From Escherichia coli (GTDB lineage Bacteria > Pseudomonadota > Gammaproteobacteria > Enterobacterales > Enterobacteriaceae): a stretch of DNA of 64,000 nt. Below the pieces are notes generated by a model. That model was given only the letters and a program-made list of their open reading frames with translations, did no database searches and was not told the DNA's origin. Where the stretch lies: the NCBI RefSeq assembly GCF_036507355.1, contig NZ_AP027877.1; one strand, 5' to 3'. Position 1 is the first letter of the stretch, and every line of letters begins with the position of its first letter. The position numbers and the translations under genes are program-made. Of this stretch, positions 28,064-53,994 are shown in pieces.

Positions 28064-29065
28064 TTAACCTCTATGCTTAATTGTGTTTAACCGGGTGCTA
28101 AATTTGCGCTCGCCAAACCGCACATCATTCTCAGGAATAATAAAAACGCGGTAATAGCGGATAAAAACAATAATTGCGGTAATCAGGGCCAGCAGCGCGA
28201 AAGTAAAATCGAGAACAATGATATATTGCAGGCCGATGTTCGACAGATAACCGGTAATCAGCGGAATAACAAAGTTAGCCAGTCCACCCATCATCATATA
28301 AATACTGGTGACTTTGGCTTTGCTTTTTGGGAAAAACTCTGACATGACCGAAACACCGAGCTGTAAAATGCCGCCAGCTGCTGAGAAACCGATAACAAAG
28401 GCGCCGGCATTACACACCAGTGGAGAAGGGTACAGGTAGATAATGGCTGCTGTTATTGTTGCCAGTGCAGAGTTAAATACATTAGCCCAGATGGGCCGGA
28501 CCATTTTTTTCAGTAGTGCGGCAAAAATAAAGACACAGACCAACGAGCCCATACTGTAATAAGAGATGGTTTTTAATGCCTCAGCTTCTGACATACCAGC
28601 AAAAGCCATCGCATATTTGGGCATCCACACCACAATCACATAAAAGGTCGAGAATGCGGCTACACCGAACAGTACCGATGAAACACCTTCCAGCCAGACT
28701 AACGGTTTGCTGTTCATTTGCGGTAATTCATTAGCTACGCTGGCGTCCACCAACTGGCTGGGGAATTTGCTTTTCAACAGCATCAGCGTGATCAGTACAA
28801 ACAGAATACCCGGAATAATCAGCCCATAGCCGTACCAGATATTATTGAGCAACATATAGCTCACCAGCATTGGGTAGAACATTTGCCCGAATGACACCAT
28901 CGCTTTAACCAGTATGACCGCCGAACCAGAGGCTTTCGGAAAGCATTCCATGAGCGCGGGGTAGCCACCCGTATCCAGCGCTGAGTTAGCGATACCTACG
29001 CACACTGCCAGACCGTAGGCGAGAGTTAAATTCGGGCAAGCGGGAATACCAAAGAAGAATAGCAG
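28064..29065 (-). pseudogene. ydiN: MFS transporter ydiN, 5'-truncated by IS1 (C-terminal ~330 codons remain)
   Basis: The MFS reading frame runs without a stop straight into the IS1 left end at 29066 (...LLFFFGIPACPNLTLAYGLAVCVGIANSAL...); the track 'start' at 29005 is an internal GTG. Confidence 0.8.
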
Positions 29066-29120
29066 GGTGATGCTGCCAACTTACTGATTTAGTGTATGAT
29101 GGTGTTTTTGAGGTGCTCCA

Positions 29121-29396
29121 GTGGCTTCTGTTTCTATCAGCTGTCCCTCCTGTTCAGCTACTGACGGGGTGGTGCGTAACGGCAAAAGCACCGCCGGACA
29201 TCAGCGCTATCTCTGCTCTCACTGCCGTAAAACATGGCAACTGCAGTTCACTTACACCGCTTCTCAACCCGGTACGCACCAGAAAATCATTGATATGGCC
29301 ATGAATGGCGTTGGATGCCGGGCAACAGCCCGCATTATGGGCGTTGGCCTCAACACGATTTTACGTCACTTAAAAAACTCAGGCCGCAGTCGGTAA
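29121..29396 (+). CDS. insA: IS1 InsA
   Basis: 91-aa [43 protein letters not shown]... Confidence 0.95.
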
Positions 29397-29818
29397 CCTC
29401 GCGCATACAGCCGGGCAGTGACGTCATCGTCTGCGCGGAAATGGACGAACAGTGGGGCTATGTCGGGGCTAAATCGCGCCAGCGCTGGCTGTTTTACGCG
29501 TATGACAGGCTCCGGAAGACGGTTGTTGCGCACGTATTCGGTGAACGCACGATGGCGACGCTGGGGCGTCTTATGAGCCTGCTGTCACCCTTTGACGTGG
29601 TGATATGGATGACGGATGGCTGGCCGCTGTATGAATCCCGCCTGAAGGGAAAGCTGCACGTAATCAGCAAGCGATATACGCAGCGAATTGAGCGGCATAA
29701 CCTGAATCTGAGGCAGCACCTGGCACGGCTGGGACGGAAGTCGCTGTCGTTCTCAAAATCGGTGGAGCTGCATGACAAAGTCATCGGGCATTATCTGAAC
29801 ATAAAACACTATCAATAA
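29315..29818 (+). CDS. insB: IS1 InsB frame, expressed as the InsAB' transposase by -1 frameshift
   Basis: InsB reading frame; A6 slippery run at 29372-29377 inside the insA 3' end. The 5' boundary is frame-defined only. Confidence 0.85.
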
Positions 29819-29924
29819 GTTGGAGTCATTACCCAGCTTGCTGACGGCTTGAAGAGAGTCACAGTATCTTGTGCAACATTATTGGAAAGAGTGAGGGGCG
29901 AGGTAGCGAAGCGGAAAAATGTTA

Positions 29925-30029
29925 AAAAAAAGCCCATCGTGGGAGATGGGCAAAGACTACACACAGCAATTCGTTGTTTCACTCAGGGGATTTCCATGCT
30001 TATAAATCAATATGTTGATTTATAACCGT
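29925..30029 (-). ncRNA. rprA: Small RNA RprA (positive regulator of rpoS translation)
   Basis: Minus strand ACGGTTATAAATCAACATATTGATTTATAAGCATGGAAATCCCC...CCCACGATGGGCTTTTTTTT recognised as RprA, with -10 TACTAT at 30036-30041 and an intrinsic terminator. Confidence 0.85.
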
Positions 30030-30064
30030 GAGCTAATAGTAGGCATACGGACTTTTTGCGTCGA

Positions 30065-30078
30065 TCAGATTCGTCTCA
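30065..30078 (-). promoter_or_regulatory. RcsB box upstream of rprA
   Basis: Minus strand TGAGACGAATCTGA, about 36-49 nt upstream of the RprA 5' end. Confidence 0.6.
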
Positions 30079-30214
30079 TTAGTTTAAAAACTGTAAAGAA
30101 TTTGCGACAGGTACTACCAGCTGAATGGCGGTACGCAGGAAAATATGGGGAAGAGCAAGCAAATATCAATTAGCGGTGGTTAACAATCAGGCGGCAGAGC
30201 CGCCTGATGAGAAA

Positions 30215-31327
30215 TTACTTATTCGGTTTCTCGATTTCGCCAAGTTCTTCGAGAATTTCTTCCGGTTGGTCCGTCGGCGGCGGGACTTCTTCCACCCACG
30301 CGGCAAACAGACGCCAGGAAACGGCTAACAGAACCGGACCAATAAACAGACCGATCATCCCGAAAGCAATCAAACCACCAATAACGCCAGAGAGGATCAG
30401 GATCAGCGGTAAATCGGCACCCATGCGAATTAACATTGGGCGGATGACGTTATCCAGCGTGCCAACCACACCGCTCCACACTAACAATACCGTTCCCCAG
30501 GTGGTATCGCCGGTCCAGTAGAGCCAGATAATCGCCGGAATCAGTACCGGCAACGGGCCAAGCTGGACAAGGCAGGAGAGGATCATTAACACCGTTAGCA
30601 ACGTTGCATAAGGTACGCCGGATACGGCGAGGCCGATACCGCCAAGCACTGCCTGTACTAACGCCGTCACCACCACACCCAGCGCCACCGCGCGGATAGC
30701 CTGTGCCGCCAGCAGCACGGCGGCATCTCCGCGAACGCCTGCCAGACGGGTTGCAAAATGGCGAATGCCTTGTGCCACCTGTTCACCGCGCCAGTACAGC
30801 AGGGCACTGAAGAGAAGCATCAGCGCACAATGCACCATAAAGCGCCCGATATGCGCCGCTTGCCCAACGAACCAGGTGGTGGTGGTGCCAATATAAGGGC
30901 GGACTTTCGCCATGATCGCCGTCCCCCCCATATCCAGCAAGTTGTGCCAGCCTGCATATAGCTTCGCGCCAATCACCGGAATGGTATTAAGCCACGCCAG
31001 ATCGGGTAACGTCATGTCACCGCTGGAAATGGCTTTAATTAGCGGGCCGCTGCCGTCGACGATACTGTTAACCAGCAAAGCAATAGGGATGATAAACACC
31101 ATCACTAATAACAGTGTCATCACCAGAACGGCGAGAGAGCGGCGGCCAAACATGATCTTTTGCAAACGTAACAATACCGGCCAGGTGGCGATAACCACCG
31201 TACCGGCCCATGCAAAGCCGAGAATAAAGGGTTGAACAATCCACAGACATGCCACAATCATGATGGCTAAAAACAGCACCGAAAGCAGAATTTGTGCGAC
31301 ATCCCTGGGCTGACGAACATTTACCAT
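30215..31327 (-). CDS. ydiK: AI-2E (PerM)-family membrane transporter
   Basis: 370-aa polytopic membrane protein MVNVRQPRDVAQILLSVLFLAIMIVACLWIV... Confidence 0.9.
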   Translation of the reverse strand: MVNVRQPRDVAQILLSVLFLAIMIVACLWIVQPFILGFAWAGTVVIATWPVLLRLQKIMFGRRSLAVLVMTLLLVMVFIIPIALLVNSIVDGSGPLIKAISSGDMTLPDLAWLNTIPVIGAKLYAGWHNLLDMGGTAIMAKVRPYIGTTTTWFVGQAAHIGRFMVHCALMLLFSALLYWRGEQVAQGIRHFATRLAGVRGDAAVLLAAQAIRAVALGVVVTALVQAVLGGIGLAVSGVPYATLLTVLMILSCLVQLGPLPVLIPAIIWLYWTGDTTWGTVLLVWSGVVGTLDNVIRPMLIRMGADLPLILILSGVIGGLIAFGMIGLFIGPVLLAVSWRLFAAWVEEVPPPTDQPEEILEELGEIEKPNK

Positions 31328-35467: not shown

Positions 35468-35692
35468 TCCTGACTTAATGCCGCAAGTTCGCCAAATCGA
35501 CCTGGATTAACCTCCGTCCAGGTTCGATGACCTTCTTAATACTGCTTATCTACCCGCCTGATATTGTTCAAAAATAATACTAATCGCAGTTTGTGTTAAA
35601 ACGGCGGCTTAGCTTTATGAGATTATTCTTATCGCCCCTTCAAGAGCTAAGCCACTGAGAGTGCCGGAGATAAGCGCCGGATGGGGTAGAAA

Positions 35693-35737
35693 CCCTTAAG
35701 CCTGTGTCGCACAGACTTAAGGGTTTTCTTATTTCTG
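35693..35737 (+). terminator. Intrinsic terminator about 230 bp downstream of ydiH; possible 3' end of a small RNA (RydB locus?)
   Basis: cccttaagcctgtg-tcg-cacagacttaaggg followed by ttttcttatttctg; too far from ydiH to be its own terminator. Confidence 0.35.
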
Positions 35738-53810: not shown

Positions 53811-53887
53811 TGGTGCGTCCGAGTGGACTCGAACCACCGACCCCCACCATGTCAAGGTGGTGCTCTAACCAACTGAGCTACGGACGC
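53811..53887 (-). tRNA. valW: tRNA-Val (anticodon GAC)
   Basis: Reverse complement GCGTCCGTAGCTCAGTTGGTTAGAGCACCACCTTGACATGGTGGGGGTCGGTGGTTCGAGTCCACTCGGACGCACCA; valV/valW assignment is by position only. Confidence 0.9.
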
Positions 53888-53891
53888 AGGA

Positions 53892-53968
53892 TGGTGCGTT
53901 CAATTGGACTCGAACCAACGACCCCCACCATGTCAAGGTGGTGCTCTAACCAACTGAGCTATGAACGC
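53892..53968 (-). tRNA. valV: tRNA-Val (anticodon GAC)
   Basis: Reverse complement GCGTTCATAGCTCAGTTGGTTAGAGCACCACCTTGACATGGTGGGGGTCGTTGGTTCGAGTCCAATTGAACGCACCA; 4-bp spacer to the second copy. Confidence 0.9.
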
Positions 53969-53994
53969 AACGTTGTAGGTGACAACGGGGACGA

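Follow-up and report, generated by a model that had tools for sequence, protein, structure and literature searches.

A probable IS1-associated deletion junction beside an intact rprA gene in Escherichia coli

The insertion sequence that lies next to the small RNA gene rprA in this Escherichia coli genome is an intact, IS1A-like element, and we read it, with a probability of roughly 0.8, as the junction of an IS1-associated deletion that left rprA untouched and that cost the strain the function of ydiL, ydiM and ydiN, the antisense output of IS1 being too weak to affect RprA. The analysis covered a window of 64 kb, by which we mean the whole stretch of DNA under study, and compared it with the genome of K-12 and with 5,426 complete E. 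coli genomes. A preliminary description of the locus had concentrated on the possibility that transcripts leaving IS1 might run antisense to rprA. It had correctly noticed that the native DNA past the RprA terminator is replaced from a short distance onward (beyond 90 bp, K-12 1770568-1772775 being missing), but it overlooked that this replacement amounts to a 2,208-bp deletion, which removed ydiL, ydiM and the 5' end of ydiN, and that the element lacks a target-site duplication (TSD).

The IS1 element and the accompanying deletion

The element shows the properties that are expected of the IS1 family: a length of ~768 bp, imperfect terminal inverted repeats (~23-30 bp expected), and the frames insA and insB' with an A6C motif. 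Both frames were recognized by Pfam, with Zn_ribbon_InsA and HTH_Tnp_IS1 on insA and DDE_Tnp_IS1 on insB', at E-values from 1e-21 to 2e-78. Its parts are arranged as follows:

29066-29833, plus strand: intact IS1, IS1A-like, 768 bp, 99.9% identical to annotated IS1A
29066-29088, plus strand: left inverted repeat (IRL), imperfect, from an inverted-repeat scan
29073-29100, plus strand: promoter-like CTGCCA-16-TATGAT, overlapping IRL, from a promoter scan
29121-29396, plus strand: insA, 91 codons, repressor of the IS1 promoter (PF03811, PF12759)
29315-29818, plus strand: insB' frame, open in translation and entered by a -1 frameshift (PF03400, E 2e-78)
29371-29377, plus strand: A6C frameshift motif, in TTAAAAAAC at 29369-29377
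29811-29833, plus strand: right inverted repeat (IRR), imperfect, the end that faces rprA, from the same inverted-repeat scan

The promoter-like site at 29073-29100 was the sole one that the promoter scan called on the plus strand within 28900-30400, and the IS1 promoter, PIS1, is described as partially overlapping IRL (PMC12428005). Two apparent extensions of the repeats were discarded as chance similarities, namely 5 nt by which the inverted repeat seemed to continue outside the element (AGCAG/CAGCT) and a 7-nt blast overhang into IRR.

Alignment to K-12 revealed what surrounds the element. The segment K-12 1770568-1772775 (2,208 bp) is absent, with IS1 in its place, and its loss took the complete genes ydiL, whose product is an Aca2/YdiL-family HTH protein, and ydiM, the spacer between ydiM and ydiN, and the ydiN promoter together with 264 bp (88 codons) at the 5' end of ydiN. 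To its left, IS1 borders on ydiN from codon 89 onward (K-12 1772776), and to its right on the DNA between rprA and ydiL (K-12 1770567). What remains of ydiN is listed here:

28064..29065, minus strand: ydiN', an MFS transporter remnant, comprising the 3' 1,002 bp (333 codons and the stop; K-12 1773777..1772776; Pfam MFS_1, E 4e-21)

When the two flanks of IS1 were compared, no TSD of 8-9 bp was found around the element: the left flank ends in ..GAATAGCAG (also given as ..AATAGCAG), and the right flank begins with CAGCTTGCT. The TSD is missing because of the accompanying 2,208-bp deletion; as judged from these flanks, its absence argues against a simple insertion, and not against the identity of the element as IS1. 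The 64-kb window shows no rearrangement besides this one: it is otherwise collinear with K-12 1801840..1736403 (98.7-98.9% identity), and it includes, as in K-12, the sRNA gene rydB (35634-35694, plus strand; Rfam RF00118, 81.6 bits) and the tRNA-Val pair valV/valW (53811-53969). The K-12 matches at the locus are exact, and chance is therefore not a consideration.

On the ydiN side of the element, the genes ydiB and aroD remain, and the ydiN promoter upstream of the remnant, ydiB and aroD is gone. At 29060-29078 on the minus strand, TGCTATTCT, an extended -10 look-alike that was not called by the promoter scan, comes after the IRL end; the IRL junction itself lies within a weak terminator-like hairpin.

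Adjacent deletions, which are typical of IS1, begin exactly at an IS end and leave the IS without direct repeats (PMC9330008). The locus presents the same picture, as a contiguous block is gone, the edge of the gap is the exact IS terminus, and a single IS copy is found without direct repeats. The right-hand end of IS1 would have landed in an AT-rich stretch that is repeatedly targeted by IS1 in E. coli, and the deletion may have come about in either of two ways: by intramolecular replicative transposition of IS1, i.e., an adjacent deletion, or by a local hop of IS1 followed by recombination between the two copies in the same orientation. The two routes give the same product, and the same ambiguity between adjacent deletion and recombination of IS copies has been noted before (PMC5009759). 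AT-rich DNA is preferred as an IS1 target, with TSDs of 8-9 bp (PMC5009759). The GC content of the rprA-ydiL region is 37-50%.

We also considered that two IS1 copies around an intact ydiL-ydiM had been collapsed into one by the assembler, which we regard as barely credible. IS1 repeats often break or confuse short-read assemblies. The element is multicopy, and one contig (L020, GCA_017814635.1) indeed stops inside IS1 beside ydiL; however, after a collapse the unique 2.2 kb should still turn up, as an orphan contig, and the architecture of a deletion with a single IS1 is found in finished genomes as well.

The rprA gene and transcription across the IS1 end

On the other side of the element, the DNA between IS1 and ydiK is nearly that of K-12, and contains the following features:

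29834..29923, no strand assigned: native spacer between IS1 and rprA, of which 90 bp are kept (K-12 1770567..1770478), with one difference, at 29838
30029..29924 (K-12 boundaries), minus strand: rprA, 106 nt, identical to K-12 at 106/106 positions
29932-29951, minus strand: RprA terminator hairpin, a 7-bp stem with 5 GC pairs, then eight U, unchanged
30030..30133, minus strand: promoter region of rprA, unchanged from K-12 between -1 and -104, holding TGAGACGAATCTGA at 30065-30078
30215..31327, minus strand: ydiK, intact, encoding an AI-2E family transporter (ORF; PF01594, E 4e-64; synteny)

The Rfam model RF00034 matched 29922-30029 on the minus strand along its whole length (positions 1-108) with 118.5 bits, the gathering score being 70, and the position of the gene is conserved, with ydiK directly upstream. 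Only two differences from K-12 occur between the ydiK stop codon and IS1 (381 bp), at 30134 (-105) and at 29838, and the rprA promoter, including TGAGACGAATCTGA at 30065-30078, which we take to be the RcsB box, is therefore intact. The promoter of rprA is RcsB-dependent. The preliminary description had considered RprA and its promoter to be undamaged, and the comparison bears this out, with 100% identity to K-12 for RprA and no change in the terminator or in the promoter from -1 to -104. The 300 bp of 29915-30214 are moreover 100% identical to those of E. coli O145 RM9872, and of the 5,426 complete E. coli genomes, 5,423 contain this rprA segment. Judging from these identities, neither rprA nor its Rcs-dependent promoter or terminator has been touched, and the gene should function normally; it is strongly induced by Rcs and serves as a standard Rcs reporter (PMC8117528; PMC5736177). 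The difference at 29838, 5 bp off the IS1 end, is a C to T change relative to K-12 on the plus strand; this position is C in the other E. coli flanks examined that cover it.

The ORFs place insA and insB' on the plus strand, converging on rprA, which Rfam puts on the minus strand, at the coordinates that had been proposed, and the distance, which had been put at 91 bp, is right, with exactly 90 bp between the IS1 end and the 3' end of RprA. This convergent geometry allows antisense transcription: transcripts from the IS1 promoter would leave through IRR and, beyond the 90-bp spacer, be antisense to rprA and then to ydiK, so that RprA would be lowered by duplex formation or by polymerase collision. 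In favor of such read-through, the terminator scan predicted no plus-strand intrinsic terminator between insA and rprA, no rut-like C-rich stretch was found on the plus strand from the insA stop codon to ydiK, and a lacZ reporter after insAB' does register some transcription out of native IS1 (PMC12903888). The level of that transcription is what makes us think the scenario very unlikely to apply here. With lacZ immediately behind the insAB' stop in a native chromosomal IS1, just 1.1 units of beta-galactosidase were measured, as opposed to 18.5 without InsA, a 16.8-fold repression (PMC12903888), and insA is intact in the window. PIS1 has been termed 'extremely weak', and the copy that carried the reporter, IS1E, additionally gets read-through from co-directional upstream promoters (PMC12428005). 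To the left of IS1 in the window all genes are on the minus strand for ~5.6 kb, and the nearest plus-strand gene able to feed IS1 is thus ~5.6 kb upstream, which further argues against antisense read-through. Nor is a hybrid outward promoter predicted at the IRR junction, where no -35/-10 pair passes the consensus scan; read by eye, the -35-like TTGGAG of IRR is followed 16-18 bp on by hexamers of the GACGGC type. Finally, IS1 is found elsewhere in both orientations at the same sites, which gives no sign of orientation-dependent selection, in small numbers and with kinship ignored. The antisense output of IS1 is therefore taken to be too low to matter, because the promoter is weak and repressed by InsA, and by analogy with the K-12 reporter, which is at another locus, it would probably be negligible for RprA when set against the rprA promoter, the standard readout of Rcs activation (PMC8117528; PMC5736177). 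Antisense RNA would be made with a derepressed PIS1 or with input from an unrecognized upstream promoter.

Two ways in which read-through might be ended were tried and rejected. The RprA terminator does not appear to be bidirectional, as AAAGAC follows the hairpin on the plus strand and no plus-strand terminator is predicted; Rho termination of an untranslated insB' RNA was set aside given that G exceeds C throughout on the plus strand (C/G 0.4-0.95). A terminator is reportedly present inside IS1, on which we did not rely. Our literature search found nothing specific on IS1 near rprA or ydiL, and no usable numbers for absolute PrprA-lacZ values.

The effect could also run in the opposite direction, with convergent transcription of rprA and ydiK, or the altered downstream context, dampening transposase expression or transpososome assembly and making this copy of IS1 less mobile. 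Here, too, there is a precedent, as a convergent kanamycin-resistance gene downstream of IS1A lowered transposition ~3-fold (PMC12428005), and rprA is strongly induced by Rcs (PMC8117528; PMC5736177). Yet the authors of the former study ascribe the 3-fold drop to disrupted downstream DNA and not to transcription, and the strong intrinsic terminator of RprA (7-bp stem, 5 GC, eight U) should let little transcription reach IS1. We therefore hold such dampening to be unlikely.

IS1 near rprA in other E. coli genomes

The exact junctions of the window (K-12 1770567 and 1772776) were searched with megablast in the 5,426 complete E. coli genomes, where neither was found, and with an exact-pattern scan in the GTDB species representatives, which gave 0 matches. 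A close relative with an 'empty site' was not found among the 5,426 complete genomes either, the best match to a 25-kb query having 99.2% identity, and a look-up of identical YdiJ proteins led in all cases to loci in which ydiL-ydiN is intact (98.9-99.2% identity). The lineage of the window is thus not represented among the complete genomes; it may be Shigella or an E. coli lineage that they do not sample. IS1 as such, in contrast to these particular junctions, is common at the locus. It lies within ~580 bp of the rprA 3' flank in 85 of the 5,426 complete genomes, in ~25 combinations of site and orientation; these are counts of genomes that ignore kinship, obtained with queries anchored on the rprA flank. 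The hotspot spans the equivalent of K-12 1770556-1771130. The orientation of the window, with IRR toward rprA, occurs in 24 genomes at at least 15 distinct offsets, and the opposite orientation in 61 genomes at about 10 distinct offsets, one of which accounts for ~42 genomes that are presumably clonal. At +43, +50, +317 and +371 bp from the window junction, IS1 is found in either orientation.

Ten IS1-bearing loci were mapped onto K-12. Seven of them are given here, with orientations relative to that of the window:

MLI104K1 (same orientation) and F829 (opposite orientation): IS1 at CATCGTGTA over the ydiL start codon, identical 9-bp TSD, simple insertion with no deletion
CRE1493: opposite orientation, IS1 at TAATGGCTG, 9-bp TSD, simple insertion with no deletion
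HCP30S3_I2: same orientation, right junction K-12 1770556, no TSD, 0.2 kb leftward deletion that ends in ydiL
NH-21: same orientation, right junction K-12 1770558, no TSD, 1.2 kb leftward deletion that ends in ydiM
MB50: same orientation, right junction K-12 1770578, no TSD, 3.9 kb leftward deletion that ends in ydiB
C9: same orientation, right junction K-12 1770610, no TSD, 3.5 kb leftward deletion that ends in ydiB

IS1 was also encountered in ydiM, in HH107 and 1008S19 (each with a deletion), and, flanked by an 8-bp TSD, in ydiN of E. coli C. With its right junction at K-12 1770567, the window sits amid the cluster of HCP30S3_I2, NH-21, MB50 and C9. Relative to the window, the junctions of the other strains are shifted by 9-43 bp at the end near rprA and by kilobases at the far end; they are independent events. 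The window is, in other words, one more independent case of a common and understood event.

The five IS1 ends that are nearest to rprA (window, NH-21, HCP30S3_I2, MB50 and C9) lie 79-133 nt beyond the RprA 3' end, and all five are convergent with rprA, lack a TSD and have deletions that extend away from rprA. The opposite-orientation copies at +43 and +50 (CRE1493 and F829) are simple insertions. That the five nearest ends are all convergent and all deleted is a probable small-sample effect of target choice. Two further loci, each in a different assembly, were encountered: a DDE_Tnp_1/DUF772 transposase, IS5-like, lies inside ydiM in GCA_949768585.1 (L016, 2086-3078), and a draft contig of GCA_017814635.1 (L020, 1-77) ends in the first 77 bp of IS1 beside ydiL; other mobile elements and further IS1 events have therefore hit the same stretch.

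One could argue that this recurrence reflects selection and not a target hotspot alone, in that loss of ydiL, ydiM or ydiN (or of their AT-rich DNA) is favored in some lineages and deletions that reach rprA are disfavored. At least six independent IS1-linked deletions, that of the window among them, have taken parts of ydiL through ydiB, each ending 79-133 nt before rprA is reached; 5,423 of 5,426 genomes still have rprA; and loss of ydiM has measurable phenotypes, in copper uptake and bo3 oxidase (PMC10588857). However, simple insertions flanked by TSDs occur in both orientations at identical sites, which points to target preference, and the clustering of the deletion ends is explicable by IS1 target choice alone (PMC9330008). 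In addition, the queries needed the rprA flank, so that deletions which remove rprA were invisible to the search. We consider selection improbable on balance. A stronger version is that the combination of a convergent IS1 and loss of ydiL-ydiN is repeatedly selected, either for tuning RprA (through antisense transcription or interference, or through H-NS or supercoiling) or for removing the Aca2-like YdiL and the MFS transporters; we think there is only the slightest chance that this is so. If it were true, the convergent and deleted state of the five nearest ends would be meaningful, and not an accident of small samples.

Relation to known systems and consequences for the strain

The reading that we prefer, an IS1-associated deletion junction, finds close counterparts in what is described for IS1 elsewhere. 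Adjacent deletion by IS1 (Turlan & Chandler 1995, via PMC9330008) and recombination between IS copies after local hopping (PMC5009759) share with the window the start at the exact IS1 terminus, the single IS1 without direct repeats, the kilobase size, and the far end in an AT-rich target of the kind that IS1 prefers; the window differs from them only in its particular junctions, K-12 1770567/1772776. The IS1 copies of NH-21, HCP30S3_I2, MB50 and C9 resemble it in orientation, lack of a TSD, leftward deletion and intact rprA, and those of MLI104K1, F829, CRE1493, E. coli C, HH107 and 1008S19 in the element and the rprA-ydiN locus. Hybrid or outward promoters made by IS elements (for IS1, Prentki et al. 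1986, listed in PMC9330008) also involve an IS1 end that abuts a host region and might in principle promote transcription outward, but they differ from the window, in which no -35/-10 pair is found across the IRR junction. As for the convergent arrangement, K-12 itself has an IS1A by nhaAR (convergent) and rpsT (PMC12428005), a native IS1 in convergent position with no reported consequence for the host unit; the neighbor there is an operon, whereas here it is an sRNA gene. The feature is a known element with a known behavior beside a known and intact sRNA gene.

Beyond annotation the finding matters little. Its concrete consequence is gene loss, as ydiL, ydiM and a functional ydiN are gone and a wild-type rprA is kept; for one of the lost genes, ydiM, a deletion mutant has been described that takes up copper more slowly and is defective in active bo3 quinol oxidase (PMC10588857). 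A by-product of the comparison is that the region rprA-ydiL-ydiM-ydiN emerges as a recurrent IS1 target, with identical sites hit in both orientations and deletions often following, and these recurrent hits call for caution against a regulatory reading of any single insertion of this kind.
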